Below are positions 542 through 14,740 of a stretch of 15,617 nt of DNA, in pieces. The notes under the pieces were generated by a model. That model saw only the letters and a program-made list of their open reading frames with translations. It had not been told where the DNA came from and did no database searches. Location: UHGV virus genome UHGV-2204636; one strand, 5' to 3'. Both the position numbers and the translations under genes were made by a program. The stretch is from a virus. The stretch's first letter is position 1. Each line of letters opens with the position of its first letter.

Positions 542-1579
542 TTAACGCTTATCCGCCACCAGTTTGAGCGCGTGTTCCAGCACATTAATGTCTGCACCCG
601 CTTTATGGGCATTTTCACTTAAATAACGCCGCCACTGCCGCGCGCCAGGAATACCCTGGAACAAGCCCAACATATGCCGGGTAATATGACCGAGATACGT
701 CCCCTGGCTGAGTTCACGCTCAATGTACGGATACATGGCGCGCACTACCGCCACCGGATCGGCATCGATATCCGAGGAACCAAAGATCTCCCGGTCTACC
801 GCCGCCAGAATACCCGGATTCTGATACGCCTCGCGCCCGACCATCACGCCATCCATATGTTGCAGGTGTGCTTTGGCCTCTTCCAGCGACTTGATACCAC
901 CGTTAATCGACATTGTCAGATGCGGAAAGTCACGCTTCAGTTGATACACACGCGGATAATCGAGCGGCGGGATCTCACGGTTTTCTTTCGGACTTAACCC
1001 CGAAAGCCAGGCTTTACGTGCATGGATGATGAACATCTCACACTCGCCTTTGCCGGAAACGGTGTTGATGAAATCGCAGAGAAATTCATAGCTGTCCTGG
1101 TCGTCGATGCCAATACGCGTTTTCACCGTCACCGGAATCGACACCACATCGCGCATCGCTTTCACGCAGTCGGCAACCAGCTGCGCATTACCCATCAGAC
1201 ACGCACCAAACATGCCGTTCTGCACCCGGTCAGACGGGCAGCCGACATTCAGGTTGATCTCATCATATCCACGCGCTTCTGCCAGCTTCGCACACTGTGC
1301 CAGCGCCGCCGGATCGCTACCGCCGAGTTGCAACGCTACCGGATGTTCTTCTTCACTGTACGCCAGGTAATCACCTTTACCGTGAATAATCGCCCCTGTG
1401 GTCACCATTTCGGTATACAGCAACGTATTGCGGGAAAGCAGACGCAAGAAATAGCGGCAATGTCTGTCCGTCCAGTCGAGCATAGGAGCAATGCTAAACC
1501 GAGAATTCCAGTAAACACCAGTTTTTTCAGGCATCACGCTGGTTTGATTAATTTTTTGTGTTTCATGATTATCGTGCAT
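542..1579 (-). CDS. dusA: tRNA-dihydrouridine synthase A; 5' end probably supplied by the integrated element; alternative start at 1534 (MPEKTG...)
   Basis: 345-aa ORF with the Dus TIM-barrel hallmarks ([31 protein letters not shown]); matches E. coli DusA as I recall it. No strong SD before either candidate start. Confidence 0.9.
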
Positions 1580-1667: not shown

Positions 1668-2765
1668 ATGGCGTACTATAACATAGAGAAACGACTAAAA
1701 TCCGATGGCACACCACGCTATCGCTGTAATGTGATTATCAAAGAAAAAGGTGTTATCACTTACAGGGAAAGCAAAACATTCCCTAAACATGCTCATGCCA
1801 AAACATGGGGCACACAGAAAGTGATGGAATTAGATCTATATGGCATTCCATCATCAAATGCAGTTGACGGACTTACAGTCCGTGACTTACTACACAAATA
1901 TTTAAATGACCCAAATGCCGGAGGTAAAGCAGGCCGTACTAAAAGATATGTGCTGGAACTGCTTATGGATAGTGACATCTCCGCGATCAAACTATCTGAA
2001 CTGACAGAAAATGACGTAATTGAACATTGCAGGCTAAGAAACAACGCTGGTGCAGGTCCTGCAACAGTCAGCCACGATGTTAGTTATCTTGGCAGTGTTC
2101 TGGATGCGGCCAAACCTGTATACGGAATTAATTACACATCAAACCCGGCGAAAAGCGCTCGCCCATATCTACTTAAACTTGGTTTGATTGGTAAATCAAA
2201 CCGTCGTAATCGTAGACCAGCATCTGATGAACTGGACATGCTCATTGCAGGCCTTCAACAACGATCTACTCATAAATGCTCAAAAATTCCGTTCGTTGAT
2301 ATCCTCAAATTTTCTGTATGGTCCTGTATGCGAATCGGAGAAGTATGCCGGTTACGATGGGAAGATCTCGACCAGGAACAAAAATCTATACTCGTAAGAG
2401 ACAGGAAAGATCCACGCAAAAAGGAAGGTAACCACATGAAAGTAGCCTTGCTTGGGGAAGCCTGGGATATCGTCCAACGACAGCCCCAAAAATCGGAATT
2501 CATTTTTCCATATAACAGCACTTCTGTTACTGCGGGATTTCAGAGAGTAAGAAGCAAATTAGGTATTAAGGATCTGCGATACCATGATTTGCGTAGAGAA
2601 GGGGCAAGTCGCTTATTTGAGGCTGGTTTTAGTATTGAGGAAGTCGCCCAAGTTACAGGGCATCGTTCATTAAACGTGCTATGGCAGGTATATACCGAAC
2701 TGTATCCGAAATCTTTACATAATCGTTTTGAAGAGCTCCAAAGGAGCAGAAATAAGACCTCTTGA
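1668..2765 (+). CDS. int: Tyrosine recombinase / phage integrase, in the position of a dusA-associated integrase
   Basis: 365-aa ORF with a GAGG SD; C-terminal catalytic signature (...RYHDLRREGASR... GHRSLNVLWQVY) typical of tyrosine integrases; divergent from and adjacent to the 5' end of dusA. Confidence 0.9.
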   Translation: MAYYNIEKRLKSDGTPRYRCNVIIKEKGVITYRESKTFPKHAHAKTWGTQKVMELDLYGIPSSNAVDGLTVRDLLHKYLNDPNAGGKAGRTKRYVLELLMDSDISAIKLSELTENDVIEHCRLRNNAGAGPATVSHDVSYLGSVLDAAKPVYGINYTSNPAKSARPYLLKLGLIGKSNRRNRRPASDELDMLIAGLQQRSTHKCSKIPFVDILKFSVWSCMRIGEVCRLRWEDLDQEQKSILVRDRKDPRKKEGNHMKVALLGEAWDIVQRQPQKSEFIFPYNSTSVTAGFQRVRSKLGIKDLRYHDLRREGASRLFEAGFSIEEVAQVTGHRSLNVLWQVYTELYPKSLHNRFEELQRSRNKTS

Positions 2766-2826: not shown

Positions 2827-3075
2827 ATGCGTATTGAAATCTGCATAGCCAAAGAAAAAATGACTAAAATGCCAACCGGTGCTGTGGATGCGTTAAAGGA
2901 AGAATTAACCCGACGCATCAGTAAGCGTTATGACGATGTTGAGGTGTTAGTAAAAGCCACCAGCAATGATGGCCTTTCTGTTACACGCACCGCAGATAAG
3001 GATTCTGCAAAAACTTTTGTTCAGGAGACTCTGAAAGATACCTGGGAATCTGCTGACGAGTGGTTTGTTCACTAA
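2827..3075 (+). CDS. DinI-family damage-inducible protein (prophage DinI-like)
   Basis: 82-aa product [11 protein letters not shown]...[16 protein letters not shown] aligns by eye with E. coli DinI (MRIEVTIAK...ETWESADDWFV); strong SD; preceded by a LexA box. Confidence 0.85.
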
Positions 3076-4731: not shown

Positions 4732-5103
4732 ATGCCATTTGCGCGCTATTTCTGCATTTTCATAAACGTTGGTTTGGGAGAAGCGGCAAAACGGAATGTG
4801 GGAACAGGGAAAAATCAGATACCTGATATGTCAGCTTATTCATCAGGATCTGGCTGGCAAAAATTGCCTGATGGTTCAATTGAACAGTGGGGAAGAATTA
4901 ATTTCCCGTATAACGCCGCGGCGGTATCTACAAATGTGACTTTCACCATTCCTTTTACGCAGGAGCCAGACGTAGTGATTGTATATGACGGCGGTTTTGG
5001 TGGTGGGAATATGTGGGGCGCAACTAACTGGACGAAAACAGGTTTCGTTGCTCATTGTAACTATGGCTTTGAAGGTGGAGCCTTCTACGCGAAAGGGCGT
5101 TAA
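4732..5103 (+). CDS. Silent alternative tail-fibre C-terminal cassette (Sv'-like); the ATG at 4732 is probably fortuitous, the cassette is expressed only after inversion
   Basis: ORF shares the VGLGE junction with the expressed fibre gene at the crossover site, then diverges (AAKRNVGTGKNQ...); no independent N-terminal fibre domain. Confidence 0.55.
   Translation: MPFARYFCIFINVGLGEAAKRNVGTGKNQIPDMSAYSSGSGWQKLPDGSIEQWGRINFPYNAAAVSTNVTFTIPFTQEPDVVIVYDGGFGGGNMWGATNWTKTGFVAHCNYGFEGGAFYAKGR
4757..4782. other. Invertase crossover site (gix/pix-like 26-bp imperfect palindrome), invertase-proximal copy
   Basis: TTTTCATAAACG-TT-GGTTTGGGAGAA; its reverse complement shares TTCTCCCAAACCAA with the site at 6573-6598; resembles hix/gix half-sites. 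Confidence 0.55.
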
Positions 5104-5105
5104 TT

Positions 5106-5546
5106 ATGAAATATTTGTATGTTGATAATCTGGCGTACCCTTATGCCCTCCAGTCTGTTTACGCTGCAAAAGGCCAATGGCCCGAAGGTAAAGGCGTGGA
5201 TATAGACGAAGCTATTTTCAGGGAATATTTCCATGATACGCCGCCTGACGGTAAGTACAGAATTACCGGAGACGATGGAATGCCAGCATGGGCAGATGTT
5301 CCACCGCCAACACGTGAAGAACAAATTGCATCAGCCGAAACTAAAAAGCAGCAATTGATTAATCAGGCCAACGATTATATGAACAGTAGACAATGGGCTG
5401 GTAAAGCGGCTATTGGTCGTCTGAAAGGTGAGGAACTGGCGCAATATAATTTGTGGCTGGATTATCTGGACGCACTGGAGCTGGTCGATACTTCCAGTGC
5501 ACCAGATATTGAATGGCCTACTCCTCCGGCAGTTCAGGCCAGATGA
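5106..5546 (+). CDS. Tail fibre assembly protein (Tfa / Mu U'-like), partner of the silent cassette
   Basis: 146-aa product with the conserved Tfa C-terminal motif (...NLWLDYLDALELVDTSSAPDIEWPTPP); immediately follows the cassette ORF. Confidence 0.85.
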   Translation: MKYLYVDNLAYPYALQSVYAAKGQWPEGKGVDIDEAIFREYFHDTPPDGKYRITGDDGMPAWADVPPPTREEQIASAETKKQQLINQANDYMNSRQWAGKAAIGRLKGEELAQYNLWLDYLDALELVDTSSAPDIEWPTPPAVQAR

Positions 5547-6120
5547 CATCCGGCGCGGTGCTGGTATCTGTTGCCGTCACCGCGTCAATGTAATCCAGCA
5601 CAGCGTTAAGTCGGGTTGTTTCTGCCTGCGTCAACTTCCGTCCGGCCTGTAATTTCAGCTGAATCAGACTAATGGAAGCCATTGCTGCATCAATCAGTGA
5701 CTGGCGCTGTGCTTCTGCTGCGTCTACTGCGGCACTATGCTGTGCCTCAGTATCCGTCACCCATTTCTCACCATCCCATTTATCGTATGGCGTTAACGGG
5801 GCGATAGTGGTTGTATTTTCGGGGTAATCACCCAGAGCTGTGATTTCTTTGGCGTCTCCCGTTTCGGTGTTATAGACGATTTCACCGCGATGGTCTGGCA
5901 CATATTCCCATGAGTTTAAATCTGCCGAACGGCAGATTGCATAACCAGCCTTATGTATACCAGGTTCATCCAGACAGGAATATGCCGGGATACCAACACC
6001 AACGGCAAGATATTCATTTGAAGTGGAAATATATTCCCGAGTTTCACCATCATAGCTATAGACGGTAATATCCCCCGCCTTCGTGGCAATAAGCTCGCTA
6101 TTTAATACAGCGTTATCCAT
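5518..6120 (-). CDS. Tail fibre assembly protein (Tfa / Mu U-like), partner of the expressed fibre
   Basis: 200-aa product with C-terminal ...LNAVLDYIDAVTATDTSTAPDVIWPELPEE motif; convergent with and overlapping the U'-like gene by 29 nt. Confidence 0.85.
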   Translation of the reverse strand: MDNAVLNSELIATKAGDITVYSYDGETREYISTSNEYLAVGVGIPAYSCLDEPGIHKAGYAICRSADLNSWEYVPDHRGEIVYNTETGDAKEITALGDYPENTTTIAPLTPYDKWDGEKWVTDTEAQHSAAVDAAEAQRQSLIDAAMASISLIQLKLQAGRKLTQAETTRLNAVLDYIDAVTATDTSTAPDVIWPELPEE

Positions 6121-6878
6121 TATTCAGCCCTCACGATAAAGTTAAATGCAATATTTCGCGCACGTGTTTCCGTTGATGTTCTGGCAACAAGTGATGCATC
6201 AAAATAATAATTCGCCTGTTTATATGTACCACCTATCGCAATTGGTGTGAGATTTGGTTGCACTATTGAAGAGGTAAATGCGCCGAAAGTATTATTATTT
6301 GTCCCCGTGGTCATATCAAAAAAGCTACCTGTAATATTTTGCAGCGTATCGCTCTGAGCACTCAATAACGCTCGCCCACTGTCCACTCCACGCCCATCAT
6401 CCCAGCCACGAATAAACTCACCCCGCAGATCTGGCAGCACAAGACCGGGGTAAACCAGTGCCAGCTTCGGATAATTTTTAGCTGCAAATGGAGCGCCGTT
6501 ACATTTCAGCCATCCTGTTGGTGGAGTGGCTAAAGGCCACGGAACAGGCACACCAACGGGTAATGCCGAACCTTCTCCCAAACCAAGATTTCCGAGAGCC
6601 GTTTTCACGGTGCCATCCGATTTGATATCGCCAAACGGATTTGAGCGACTCAGTAACAGCGCGTTTAGTGCTGTTAATAACTGGTTTTTTTTAGAAGGAT
6701 CAACATTAATACCGGCAGCGTTCAGGACAGTAATAAGCTCCGACTGCGCATCTCTGACAGCCCCCTGCACGTTATTCAGATGCTCAGCATCAACAATGGT
6801 CCCCAGCTCACCTGTGAGCGGATTACCATCATGGAAAAGATTATCCGGCGTCTGCACCGGTGGCATTAAGGGCCGCAT
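6120..6878 (-). CDS. Tail fibre protein (constant N-terminus about 6586-6878 plus currently expressed variable C-terminus 6120-6585)
   Basis: 252-aa ORF; start overlaps the stop of the upstream gene (TAATG); contains the crossover site at the GLGE codons. Confidence 0.85.
6573..6598. other. Invertase crossover site (26-bp imperfect palindrome) inside the tail fibre gene
   Basis: TTCTCCCAAACC-AA-GATTTCCGAGAG; inverted relative to the site at 4757-4782. Confidence 0.55.
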
Positions 6879-7450: not shown

Positions 7451-8514
7451 AGCAGCTCTACCTCAACGTTTCCTAATTTGAGCCATTCGACTTTCGTGGC
7501 ATCGATTATCGGTTGAATATTTGCCGATGGTGTAACGATGTCATAGTCGGTAATACCCGGAATTAGAGAAATCAATGTCCCCGCCTGGCTGCGAATAAAA
7601 GCCACTCCAGGCTCTCGGCGCGAGTCATCGTCCTCCAGCGTTCCGGCGACAGCCTGTTTGGCTGCTGCGAGGGTGATGCCCTCCAGTGATACCTTCACGA
7701 GGACGTCAAATGTACGGATGACAGGTATGAGCACCAGCGTGTTTTTTGCTGTAACAGGCCGGACATCGTCAATGTGAGCCTGCACCCTGTCGATCACATC
7801 CTGAGATGGCAGCCCACCTGCAGACGTGATCACAACATCAACGGTACCCGGCCCCCGCCGCAAAGGGTAAACATATGCGGCGGATACGCCTGATACCTCA
7901 AGCGCCCAGCGTTTGTAATCATATTTATTGCCGCCTGCAGGAGGTCGGCGGATGATTTCAAGCAGACGAGCAAGCAGCTCTGCATCCGTTTCCTCATCTG
8001 TTCCGCCAGTCATCAGGCCTACTGTCACTGTGCTGTCAAACCCATCAGGTGTTGTGGTCAGTGTGGCCGATGTGACGGAAGTGGTGTTACCAGTGGTTCC
8101 GGCCAGAGAAGACACTGCGTTTACCGATGATTTTCCATCTGACCCGACAATAATATCTTCGGTTGTTGTCCACGAAACACTGTCGCGTTTGAACACAAGA
8201 CCGGCAGCGGCCACCGCTCCTGGTTCGCCGGTAAACGTGGCAGGCCCGGAGGCGCTGTTGGCTGCTTTTTTGCTTAAACCACGTAAACGGGCGTGCAGAT
8301 AGAGGAATTCCGAATCAGCAGTATCCGGAAAGATCTGACGGACTATCCATCCCTGATGCTGATAAAGCCCCTCGGCAACACTGGCTACACTCGATGCCCG
8401 GATGTACCAGTCGCTGTCCGGGCCCAGCGTATCATCTGACAACTGCAGGAGATTTTTGATATCCCGCAGAATGTCAGTGCGTATTTGCGCGGCATTTTTG
8501 GTAATGAATGGCAT
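7447..8514 (-). CDS. Baseplate J-like protein (Mu gp47 / P2 gpJ family)
   Basis: 355-aa ORF; position and size fit baseplate J; 4-nt overlap with the downstream gene. Confidence 0.8.
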   Translation of the reverse strand: MPFITKNAAQIRTDILRDIKNLLQLSDDTLGPDSDWYIRASSVASVAEGLYQHQGWIVRQIFPDTADSEFLYLHARLRGLSKKAANSASGPATFTGEPGAVAAAGLVFKRDSVSWTTTEDIIVGSDGKSSVNAVSSLAGTTGNTTSVTSATLTTTPDGFDSTVTVGLMTGGTDEETDAELLARLLEIIRRPPAGGNKYDYKRWALEVSGVSAAYVYPLRRGPGTVDVVITSAGGLPSQDVIDRVQAHIDDVRPVTAKNTLVLIPVIRTFDVLVKVSLEGITLAAAKQAVAGTLEDDDSRREPGVAFIRSQAGTLISLIPGITDYDIVTPSANIQPIIDATKVEWLKLGNVEVELL

Positions 8515-8864
8515 CAGCTGACCTTAACCGGATATTTCCAGGTCTGCGGCGTTCCGCTCGCAGACGTGACGGTGATATGAAGCAGCATCCAGCCTTTTTG
8601 CCAGTGCTCTGCAGTAACGGAAATGGACTGGGCGCGACCGTCGTCAATAATCGGTTGCAGGGCCTGCCGCGAATACTGCACCGCGAGTTGTTGAACGCGA
8701 GACACATCCTTTTCGCGGCGGAGTGTATGCAAAAGAGAGCCCAGAGTTGGATCAGCCCACCATGAGCCAAGGGGCGTCATCAGCCGTAAGTAGACGGCAT
8801 TCGCTAAAGAGTCTGAGCTGTCGCCGGTATAATCGCCGGTCGTTGGATCAATCAACATTTCCAT
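8514..8864 (-). CDS. Baseplate protein, Mu gp46 / GP46-family (gpW/gp25-like)
   Basis: 116-aa ORF directly upstream of and overlapping the baseplate J-like gene; start region lies in a hairpin, so the exact start (8864 or 8858) is uncertain. Confidence 0.7.
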   Translation of the reverse strand: MEMLIDPTTGDYTGDSSDSLANAVYLRLMTPLGSWWADPTLGSLLHTLRREKDVSRVQQLAVQYSRQALQPIIDDGRAQSISVTAEHWQKGWMLLHITVTSASGTPQTWKYPVKVS

Positions 8865-8953
8865 GCCGTAATACTACCGGCATGGAAATTTAAATTATCG
8901 GTGAAGGGGTTCAGTGGGTATTGCTTTTGAAGGAGAACTTACGTTACCACAAA

Positions 8954-9559
8954 TTACATTTGCTGATTAGGTTTCTGCGTTGTGCCTGCATCACCGCCGT
9001 GGTCGTGGTCGTGACCGTCATAAGTCTCACGCATGGTGTTCAGCGTAGACTTGCCGTCAGCGACTTCATTACTGCCTTTCAGCAATGGTGTATCAAAATC
9101 TGCCCGCTCTGAGGCTGTGGTTTTATACGTTTTGGTATTAACAATATGTTGTTCGGTATTCACCGTGTGCTTTTTAGTATTAACGATATATTCATCGCAG
9201 TTTACTTCAATTATTTTTCCGCGCTTCAGAATAATGTTGCTTCCTTCATCCGAATAAATGGCAAGCTCACCACTTTTCAGGCTCTTTAGCCTGTATGCAG
9301 CGTGTTCCGTGGCAATCACCACGCTATGACTGGTGCGCCCGTTAAGCGGGAGCACAATGGCTTTAGTCCCCCTGGGCGGGTTGGATGTAAAACCGTACTG
9401 CTGAAACATCTCCACATCCTGCAAAGACTCAGTGGCCAGACCTTTACCCTGAATGGTCTGAATATCACCACCGCTGTTAACCCTTATTAAAACGCCCCTG
9501 AAGGCCTTTCTTATACGGTTTAACGCCGTGTTAATACGAGAGTCAATTTTGTTCCACAT
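8954..9559 (-). CDS. Baseplate assembly protein V / spike (Mu gp45-like)
   Basis: 201-aa ORF following the hub gene; His/Asp-rich C-terminal tip (DGHDHDHGGD) typical of spike proteins. Confidence 0.75.
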   Translation of the reverse strand: MWNKIDSRINTALNRIRKAFRGVLIRVNSGGDIQTIQGKGLATESLQDVEMFQQYGFTSNPPRGTKAIVLPLNGRTSHSVVIATEHAAYRLKSLKSGELAIYSDEGSNIILKRGKIIEVNCDEYIVNTKKHTVNTEQHIVNTKTYKTTASERADFDTPLLKGSNEVADGKSTLNTMRETYDGHDHDHGGDAGTTQKPNQQM

Positions 9560-14213: not shown

Positions 14214-14216
14214 GGA

Positions 14217-14740
14217 TTATCTCCGTTTGCCGACTTTCTTCCGGCGTTGCGATTTGACAGTGCGGGTTGTGCGGGTGGTAGTTTGCCCGGTTTTCTTTCC
14301 ATGTAACCGGGCAAGTGCTTCGGTGTAGCCGTCGAGTTCCGTTCGGGTCATGCTTCCGATTTGTTGTTCACTGATACCGTATCGCCCGAGGGCGAGGACG
14401 AGGGTTCGGTACCCGGTGAGCTTTTGTTCAAATCCATCCGCTTTTTTTTAATGGCTTCAATCTGAGCATCGATGAGATCGAAATCATCATCATTCAGCTC
14501 GTTAAGGAGCAGCTCCGCCGTAATTTCTTCCTTTGGCACATCTCCGAGGGCAGTAATCGCACACGCCATTACCGCAACACGGTAATACATGTTTGCGGCT
14601 GCGCCTTCGGTAGTGCCGCAGGCTTCATCGGTTGCCCGCAGCGCTTCAATGGTATCGCTCACCACAGGCAGCCTGACGGCAAAGTCAAAATGGACTTTAT
14701 CACCGTATTTAACGCCATATAAAAGCTGCTGCTTTTCCAT
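14217..14740 (-). CDS. Tail assembly chaperone, -1 frameshift-extended isoform (G-T / E+E' analogue)
   Basis: After the slippery site the -1 frame stays open for ~76 codons (ADGFEQKLTGYRTLVLALGRYGISEQQIGSMTRTELDGYTEALARLHGKK...KRR) and stops at 14217-14219, one codon before the tape measure ATG. Confidence 0.5.
14348..14740 (-). CDS. Tail assembly chaperone (lambda G / P2 E / Mu gp41 analogue), zero-frame product
   Basis: 130-aa acidic ORF between the tube and tape measure genes; contains an A AAA AAG slippery heptamer near its 3' end. Confidence 0.75.
   Translation of the reverse strand: MEKQQLLYGVKYGDKVHFDFAVRLPVVSDTIEALRATDEACGTTEGAAANMYYRVAVMACAITALGDVPKEEITAELLLNELNDDDFDLIDAQIEAIKKKRMDLNKSSPGTEPSSSPSGDTVSVNNKSEA
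14441..14447 (-). promoter_or_regulatory. Programmed -1 ribosomal frameshift slippery heptamer A AAA AAG
   Basis: Minus strand reads GCC ATT AAA AAA AAG CGG in the chaperone frame (dnaX-type heptamer). Confidence 0.5.

Follow-up and report, generated by a model that had tools for sequence, protein, structure and literature searches.

For the phage T4 genes e, soc, 49 and I-TevI, the longer early transcripts, initiated upstream, form a helix over the Shine-Dalgarno (SD) sequence or the AUG, with a 100-fold effect for lysozyme, and a late promoter in the DNA encoding the 5′ strand of the hairpin gives late transcripts that are open (PMC3014915). The late promoters of phage Mu carry a 16-bp imperfect-dyad C site centred at -43.5, with the -10 element present and the -35 element absent (PMC2582627). 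The DNA described here, a stretch of 15,617 nucleotides (nt) of the virus genome UHGV-2204636 (hereafter the window), carries a Mu-like tail/baseplate operon on the minus strand, in which an inverted repeat covers the start codon of gp46, the gene of a baseplate wedge protein. With moderate confidence we read this repeat as an insulator: the gp46 mRNA made from its own late promoter would begin at the start codon and remain open, and only RNA reading through from the upstream tail genes would fold over it.

The repeat occupies 8857..8889 and, like all features below unless stated otherwise, is read on the minus strand. Its 5′ arm ATTTCCATGCCG (8889-8878) spans -25 to -14 counted from the A of the gp46 ATG, the loop is GTAGTATTA (8877-8869), and the 3′ arm CGGCATGGAAAT (8868-8857) runs from -4 to +8, thereby including the ATG at 8864-8862. 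The preliminary description of this locus had reported a perfect 8-bp inverted repeat, CCATGCCG/CGGCATGG, at 8861-8885, with the gp46 ATG in its downstream arm on the mRNA. Both statements are correct, and the 8 bp prove to be the inner part of a larger stem of 12 perfect pairs. As RNA the hairpin has a folding free energy (ΔG) of -18.6 kcal/mol, and it appears in both the minimum free energy and the centroid fold of a 131-nt region. It is the longest hairpin-type repeat of the window; a stem of at least 12 bp is reached by 1% of 300 first-order Markov shuffles (mean 0.01 per window). In a transcript with both arms, the upstream 70 nt included, the gp46 AUG is unpaired with a probability of 0.00, and 23.4 kcal/mol are needed to open the initiation region, where the remaining genes of the operon need 6-15.

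The ATG inside the stem is the true start of gp46. M1 is invariant among homologues, and the N-terminus M-[E/D]-x-L-[I/L]-D-P is kept in 35 PF07409 homologues, the majority of which lack a Met at position 3. A start further upstream is ruled out by a TAG in frame within the hairpin loop. An AUG in the 5′ arm was considered as the start of a leader peptide and rejected, as it lies itself in the stem and its frame is not kept, owing to the varying lengths of stems and loops.

The hairpin does not have the form of an intrinsic terminator, that is, a GC-rich stem and then a U-tract. No U-tract follows the stem on either strand, the sequence after it being GUUGAUUGAU, and a consensus promoter/terminator scan of 8400-9400 finds no terminator-like site on the minus strand. 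The preliminary description was therefore right to doubt a terminator. Rfam covariance models run over the whole window give no match at E <= 1. The hairpin reaches into the 89-nt gap between gp45/V and gp46 (8865..8953), which had been described as the only sizeable gap of the tail operon. This holds in effect, since a second annotated gap, of 134 bp at 14214-14347, is coding via a -1 frameshift at A_AAA_AAG.

Relatives were collected by a profile search with one genome per species. This gave 80 loci with gp46 52-84% identical, from Enterobacterales, Burkholderiales, Neisseriales, Pseudomonas, Pasteurellaceae, Desulfovibrio and others. In the 96%-identical prophage of E. coli FDAARGOS_1303 the gap is identical to that of the window. 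A helix was counted when it was uninterrupted, at least 9 bp long with G.U pairs allowed, and included the start codon, and loci with the upstream 70 nt shuffled served as control. Such a helix is present in 36 of the 80 non-identical loci; the shuffles give a mean of 2.2 and a maximum of 8. The stem sequences differ among the relatives, for example TTCCATACCGATA/TATCGGTATGGAA, CCATGCCCCGCA/TGCGGGGCATGG and TCCATGCACAGA/TCTGTGCATGGA.

Thirty hairpin-bearing loci were aligned by MAFFT with no structural information. In this alignment 81.8% of the cells are paired in the named structure, compared with 34-42% when the partners are slid. Ten of the 14 pairs have changed on both sides (4-8 with partners slid, 6.8 on average in shuffles), and the covariation score is 0.369 against 0.07-0.12 with partners slid, a value that 0 of 500 shuffles reach. 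The median ΔG of the 30 hairpins is -19.2 kcal/mol. Conservation in related tail operons, which the preliminary description had proposed to look for, is thus found, together with compensatory changes. Two relatives that start with GTG, Erwinia sp. V71 (L010) and the Klebsiella phage ST405-OXA48phi1.1 (L184, 880-903), have a C in the 5′ arm that compensates for the G (CCAC/CCGC...GTGG). As covariation evidence this speaks well for the hairpin, but it is awkward for leaderless translation. The loop measures 3-19 nt across the relatives, and stem and loop sequences vary except for an A..T pattern of the -10 type.

The -10-type pattern belongs to a promoter. Promoter elements were found by right-aligning 81 upstream regions on the ATG, with nucleotide frequencies taken from 73 non-redundant loci. 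In the window the -10-like hexamer is TAGTAT (8871..8876, -12 to -7), situated within the hairpin loop. A-11 and T-7 each occur in 45 of the 73 non-redundant loci and C-1 in 53. The sequence A-N3-T stops 7, 8 or 9 nt short of the A of the start codon in 43, 23 and 8 loci, respectively (73/81 altogether), as against 0-5 loci in neighbouring registers. The hexamer is kept also where the hairpin is missing, such as TAAAAT, CATAAT and TATCAT in Neisseriaceae and Pasteurellaceae.

Upstream of it lies a 16-bp imperfect dyad, ACTGAACCCCTTCACC (8900..8915, -51 to -36, centre -43.5), which is predicted to be the site of a late activator of the Mor/C family. The family consensus of this 16-mer is ACTGAAcCCCtTCAnC, and its CTGA begins at -52 to -48 in 46 of the 81 loci (background 0.0054 per nt). 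The window has no second copy of the 16-mer, with 0.10 occurrences expected at up to 3 mismatches. If the predicted start is right and +1 is the A of the gp46 ATG, the centre of the dyad matches that of the Mu C site exactly. The -35 position (-35 to -30) reads GATAAT, a 1/6 match to TTGACA, and on the sense strand the consensus sigma70 promoter scan of 8400-9400 gives no site. Between gp45/V and gp46 there is therefore probably a Mor/C-type late promoter, with a start site predicted at, or 1-2 nt from, the A of the gp46 ATG (8862..8864, +1 at 8864). The preliminary description had placed the gap within one tail operon; the promoter signature and the predicted start do not fit an inert intercistronic spacer.

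Other explanations of the 16-mer were tried and discarded. Reading CTGAAC as a sigma70 -35 box, or GAAC as a -35 of the extracytoplasmic function type, implies CCCCGC as the -10 at the protease promoter described below, which is not conserved elsewhere. The TGA inside the 16-mer was considered as a stop codon left over or held in reserve, as the end of a V protein extended by frameshifting and as part of a bypass like that of T4 gene 60. These readings fail, since the TGA is outside the frames of both V and gp46, just 9 codons are open before it, and there are no matching take-off and landing codons. Six Pseudomonas loci (L013, L024, L028, L029, L051 and L064, -60 to -35) have another upstream element, cTTAAAC-N4-CTGA[A/T]A, about 10 nt closer to the ATG, and do not have the start-codon hairpin. 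This different element presumably marks a diverged activator specificity.

Gp46 is the sole gene of the 11 in the operon without a GGAG-type SD sequence, and across the loci the median ΔG of SD/anti-SD pairing is -1.7 for gp46 and -5.9 for gp47. Among the 81 loci, 78 are anchored on ATG and L010 starts with GTG. For L047, L053 and L068 the tblastn match did not extend up to the start codon, and these loci were re-anchored by hand on a nearby upstream ATGG. GTG is also the start codon in Klebsiella phage ST405-OXA48phi1.1, an isolated phage whose record is outside the 81-locus set. Because the -10 ends 7 nt before the A and the dinucleotide C-1/A+1 follows, the expected transcript begins AUGGAA... 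A 5′-terminal AUG would be open, with a probability of being unpaired of 0.63 in the window and a median of 0.69 across the loci. The gp46 mRNA from its own promoter is thus predicted, with the same moderate confidence as the insulator reading of which this is part, to be leaderless with a free 5′ AUG.

The same arrangement recurs in the E. coli FDAARGOS_1303 prophage. The 16-mer, with up to 2 mismatches on the sense strand, occurs exactly three times in these 41 kb, before the endolysin, the head protease and gp46, and in all three a -10-like hexamer stands at nt 24-29 after it (AATACT, TATCGT and TAGTAT). The protease and endolysin heads lie at 16343-16400 and 24490-24567 of the prophage (L082), and their relatives (L083-L102 and L103-L152) agree. 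One Mor-family activator gene is annotated in the prophage (25056-25490), just upstream of the lysis genes.

At the protease gene, in the prophage and in the relatives, the 16-mer is followed by an inverted repeat with a TAnnnT hexamer in its loop and, 7-8 nt after the hexamer, by the ATG without an SD sequence. The repeats come in compensatory variants (GGTGCCG-tatcgt-CGGCACC|ATG, GGTGCTG-tacgct-CAGCACC and TGCTGC-...-GCAGCA), with the ATG directly after the 3′ arm. The protease gene is thus predicted to be leaderless as well. At the endolysin promoter the 5′ arm ACGCCATCC, at about -5 to +4 and therefore across the predicted start, pairs with GGATGGCGT at +16 to +24, which holds an SD-like element, GGAUGG. 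Variants there are CACCATC/GATGGTG and TGACACC/GGTGTCA, the latter reaching the AUG about 30 nt downstream. What the three promoter classes have in common is that the 5′ arm is outside the own (predicted) transcript and the 3′ arm is on the translation start; symmetry about the -10 is not shared.

The position of the -10 in the loop raises the question of a role in DNA. On supercoiled or replicating phage DNA the repeat might extrude as a hairpin or cruciform and modulate how Mor/C-type promoters form the open complex. The -10-like hexamer of the gp46 and protease promoters has one arm on either side, and in the triloop versions A-11 and T-7 form the loop-closing pair. Moreover, the step at which Mu C acts on Plys, PI and PP is the formation of the open complex (PMC4461284), and Mu late transcription is coupled to replication via the sliding clamp (PMC12867686). 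The endolysin repeat, however, is off-centre from the -10, with its 5′ arm at about -7 to +4 and its 3′ arm 16-30 nt downstream on the SD or AUG, a position that favours a role in RNA over one in DNA. The triloop hairpins would bury A-11 and T-7, and the repeat is missing from over half of the gp46 promoters of the family. A cruciform also needs pairing of both strands, yet the interior non-Watson-Crick pairs in the 30-locus alignment comprise 14 G.U and 3 A.C on the sense strand (two-sided binomial about 0.013). A count that let both G.U and A.C extend the helix gave 86 against 85 and was discarded as an artefact of chance extension. We hold the DNA-level reading to be very unlikely. Were it to apply, the repeats, extruded on negatively supercoiled or freshly replicated DNA, would be structural promoter parts presenting or hiding the -10, Mor/C late transcription would be gated by DNA topology or replication, and a widespread Mu-like family would have obligatorily leaderless head-protease and baseplate mRNAs; that combination is just as improbable.

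The conserved sequence 5′ of the hairpin, together with a start codon included in it, would also suit a translational operator, in which a phage protein binds the 16-mer as RNA, or the hairpin, and opens or closes the start codon. A protein-operated translation device is used by Mu at mom, which counts for this possibility. Stem and loop sequences, however, vary freely save for the -10-type A..T pattern, and conserved nucleotides for recognition were not found. The 16-mer keeps a fixed, DNA-type spacing to the -10-like hexamer even where the hairpin is 30 nt further downstream, and its imperfect dyad at -43.5 suits a dimeric Mor/C activator. In the related prophage a Mor-family gene is annotated and a Com-like gene is not. 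An operator of this kind is accordingly most improbable.

An insulator brings these features together as follows. An activator-dependent Mor/C-type late promoter in the gap would start transcription of gp46 at or near the A of its ATG. The predicted +1 puts the 5′ arm upstream, so that this transcript cannot form the hairpin; it would have no 5′ arm, no SD sequence and an open 5′ AUG. Read-through RNA from the upstream tail genes would carry both arms, and the 12-bp hairpin would bury the AUG and block initiation. The hairpin would thereby tie the translation of gp46 to transcripts from its own late promoter. In this account the start site, the binding of the activator and the effect on translation are inferred; the sequences themselves show a conserved and covarying repeat, a promoter-like anatomy that recurs at three operon heads, and the lack of an SD sequence. 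For the lysis gene of the related prophage the rationale of such a device is obvious, as it would keep read-through of the middle operon from causing premature lysis.

The distribution of terminators bears on this proposal. A hairpin like an intrinsic terminator is found upstream in 0 of 34 hairpin loci and in 13 of 47 hairpin-less loci (Fisher p = 4.5e-4), which suggests that the start-codon hairpin matters where read-through occurs. Terminator-like hairpins with a T-run lie between V and gp46 (-100 to -30) in L065, L070, L071, L075, L079, L081, L066 and L073, which come from Pasteurellaceae, Neisseria and some Desulfovibrio. The motif GCTGAACA/ACTGAACA forms the loop of the terminator-like hairpin in L070 and L075, and the gap of L073 holds the Neisseria DNA-uptake sequence GCCGTCTGAA.

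The same mutual exclusion could mean that the hairpin replaces the intrinsic terminator as a 3′-end or stability element of RNA, either as a barrier to 3′ exonucleases or as the end-point after Rho-dependent termination, and stabilises the upstream tail mRNA. The high stability of the hairpins and the G.U bias on the sense strand fit such a role. The 3′ arm, however, is on the translation start of the next gene (AUG or SD) in all three promoter classes, and the hairpin never stands in the free spacer after the upstream stop codon, where 35 nt are unused in the window. As the purpose of the hairpin this explanation is quite unlikely. A 3′-end or stability role is nevertheless compatible with the insulator, and both may operate together.

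The preliminary description had suggested a translational attenuator or an RNase processing site that sets baseplate stoichiometry. In this form the hairpin would act constitutively on a polycistronic tail mRNA and set the dosage of gp46 relative to its neighbours. In any transcript with both arms the AUG is fully sequestered, and since V and gp46 are not separated by a terminator in the window, such read-through transcripts should exist; in addition, the two relatives with GTG would be hard to translate as leaderless mRNAs. With no SD sequence, a stem of -18.6 kcal/mol and an opening cost of 23 kcal/mol, however, initiation would be near nil and not attenuated, and gp46 is an essential baseplate component. 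The 13 hairpin-less relatives with a terminator before gp46 must have a promoter there. Neither attenuation nor processing accounts for a 16-mer conserved at -43.5, for a -10-like hexamer whose distance from the ATG is fixed in 73 of 81 loci, or for the recurrence of both at the heads of the lysis and protease operons. A 12-bp stem is moreover too short for a canonical RNase III site. We thus regard a constitutive attenuator or RNase site as unlikely, and the evidence on the purpose of the hairpin does not point to baseplate stoichiometry or RNase processing. The idea of attenuation survives in one part: the AUG is fully paired in transcripts with both arms, and the own predicted mRNA would be without the 5′ arm, which would confine the effect to read-through. 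The earlier interpretation is on the whole partly supported, being right about a start-codon hairpin, which is conserved, and about a non-terminator, and having missed the late-promoter context.

Several points weigh against the insulator and the leaderless start. Gp46 is a structural protein, yet E. coli translates leaderless mRNAs modestly. The Erwinia locus and the Klebsiella phage start with GTG, which in E. coli works poorly as a leaderless start. The predicted start site is inferred from promoter geometry, and literature searches found nothing usable on mapped transcription starts for this phage or other Mu-like prophages of its family. No Mor-family gene is within the 15.6-kb window; the copy of the relative lies in a region that the window does not reach. 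The hairpin is missing in 47 of the 81 loci, over half of the family, and as the 30 aligned loci were picked for having it, the unbiased figure for conservation is the helix count of 36/80. The figures for the G.U bias and the exclusivity of terminators ignore the relatedness of the loci. The transcripts reading through into gp46 are themselves late, so that the benefit of insulation is plain for the lysis operon only and unclear for gp46. An internal AUG without an SD sequence is weak anyway, and selection for a hairpin of -19 kcal/mol is therefore not fully explained.

The genes of the operon occur on the minus strand in the order sheath, tube, chaperone, tape measure, DNA-circularisation protein, gp44-like, gp45/V, gp46, gp47/J, gp48-like and fibre. 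The gp45/V-like baseplate spike gene (8954..9559, PF06890 Phage_Mu_Gp45, stop codon 8956-8954) is the last gene before the promoter and would be the source of read-through. Gp46 itself (8514..8864, 116 residues, PF07409) is the predicted first gene of a late baseplate/tail-fibre operon; the promoter gap between the two has no -35 and no intrinsic terminator. Isolated phages show minimal DNA similarity to the window, and a close gp46 is encoded in just 11 phage records.

Further observations concern other parts of the window. The slippery sequence A_AAA_AAG is at 14447 on the minus strand, and the -1 frame is open to the TAA at 14219-14217, 3 nt before the ATG of the tape measure. This extension (14217-14447) is the classical frameshift product of a tail-assembly chaperone, and within it is a 10-bp hairpin, TTGCCCGGTT/AACCGGGCAA, at 14283-14314. 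A gene for Dus (dihydrouridine synthase, 542-1579, minus strand) adjoins a tyrosine integrase (1668-2765, plus strand) and DinI (2827-3075). The 96%-identical tail module of E. coli FDAARGOS_1303 is part of a transposable Mu-like prophage with MuA/MuB, inserted in ydbL. The element in the window may be mosaic and have another integration module, possibly of the dusA type. A tail-fibre tip (4732-5103) and a tail-fibre assembly gene (5106-5546), both on the plus strand, are opposite the fibre (6120-6878) and its assembly gene (5518-6120), both on the minus strand. The segment 4732-6878 resembles an invertible host-range cassette such as the G segment of Mu. In the window an invertase for it was not seen, and the E. 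coli relative has a recombinase gene there.

Parts of the gp46 start resemble several known elements. The cI mRNA of phage lambda made from PRM is leaderless, and it shares with gp46 a 5′-terminal AUG (predicted here), the missing SD sequence and a -10 that ends 7 nt before the A of the ATG. Here, in contrast, late structural and protease genes are concerned, the feature is conserved across many Proteobacteria, and it is a prediction. The com-mom translation-inhibition structure of Mu and the MS2 replicase operator are likewise hairpins with the start codon of a phage gene. They differ in being worked by an RNA-binding protein that reads conserved nucleotides, whereas the stems and loops of gp46 vary and indicate no such protein. 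In T4 gene 25, also a baseplate wedge gene, a conserved hairpin separates the SD from the AUG in a split ribosome-binding site, where it enhances initiation (PMC3014915). Both baseplate wedge genes thus have a conserved hairpin at their start, but gp46 has no SD and its AUG is part of the stem.

The probable promoter is closest to the late promoters of Mu. Both have a -10 without a -35 and a 16-bp imperfect dyad, centred at -43.5 in Mu and, if the predicted +1 is right, here as well; both head lysis, head-protease and tail/baseplate operons, and a Mor-family activator gene stands just upstream of the lysis genes. The dyad is ACTGAACCCCTTCACC here and ..CATAACCCC.. in Mu, the third promoter precedes gp46 here and gene P (gp44) in Mu, and one Mor/C-family gene is annotated in the E. 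coli relative. The leader of Mu PI is about 25 nt long with an AGGA Shine-Dalgarno, and in the window the ATG comes 7 nt after the -10. Mu PI was considered as a near-leaderless precedent with a 7-nt leader free of an SD and was rejected, since gene I starts at the later ATG that gives this longer leader. Mu PI (L183, 463-494) has a 7-bp repeat, CTGCTCA-N8-TGAGCAG, that straddles the S1-mapped start site, and a 6-codon upstream open reading frame (ATGATGAGCAGCAGGACATGA) overlaps the start of gene I.

The logic of the proposed insulator has been met before in transposons. IS10 and IS50 are said, in work attributed to Davis, Simons and Kleckner (1985) and to Schulz and Reznikoff (1991), to use fold-back inhibition, in which the own promoter lies inside an inverted repeat and only read-through RNA hides the transposase start. 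Theirs protects the transposon from host promoters; here the repeat lies between operons of one phage.

The nearest likeness is to T4 e, soc, 49 and I-TevI. There the 3′ strand is over the SD and/or AUG, and at gp46 the 3′ arm from -4 to +8 includes the ATG. An own late promoter is in the DNA of the 5′ strand (here with a predicted start and in three promoter classes), and the arrangement is conserved among related phages. The copy at the lysis gene of the related prophage is a direct functional parallel. The differences are that the present phages are Mu-like, with sigma70 promoters bearing a Mor/C-type dyad in place of the gp55 promoters (TATAAATA) of T4; that transcripts of gp46 and the protease gene are predicted to begin at the A of the ATG, while T4 transcripts keep a leader with an SD sequence; and that the present case is known from sequence alone.

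If the proposal is true, leaderless mRNAs serve two of the three late operons in a large family of Mu-like prophages, and many members of this family couple translation to promoter choice through a hairpin formed by read-through RNA alone. This would be a natural, conserved case of leaderless expression of structural genes in Gammaproteobacteria. For annotation, the largest gap of the tail operon would be an operon boundary with a predicted activator site, ACTGAAcCCCtTCAnC, that can be used to find late promoters in such prophages. The device known from T4 and the IS elements would thus extend to a new phage lineage and a new type of promoter.

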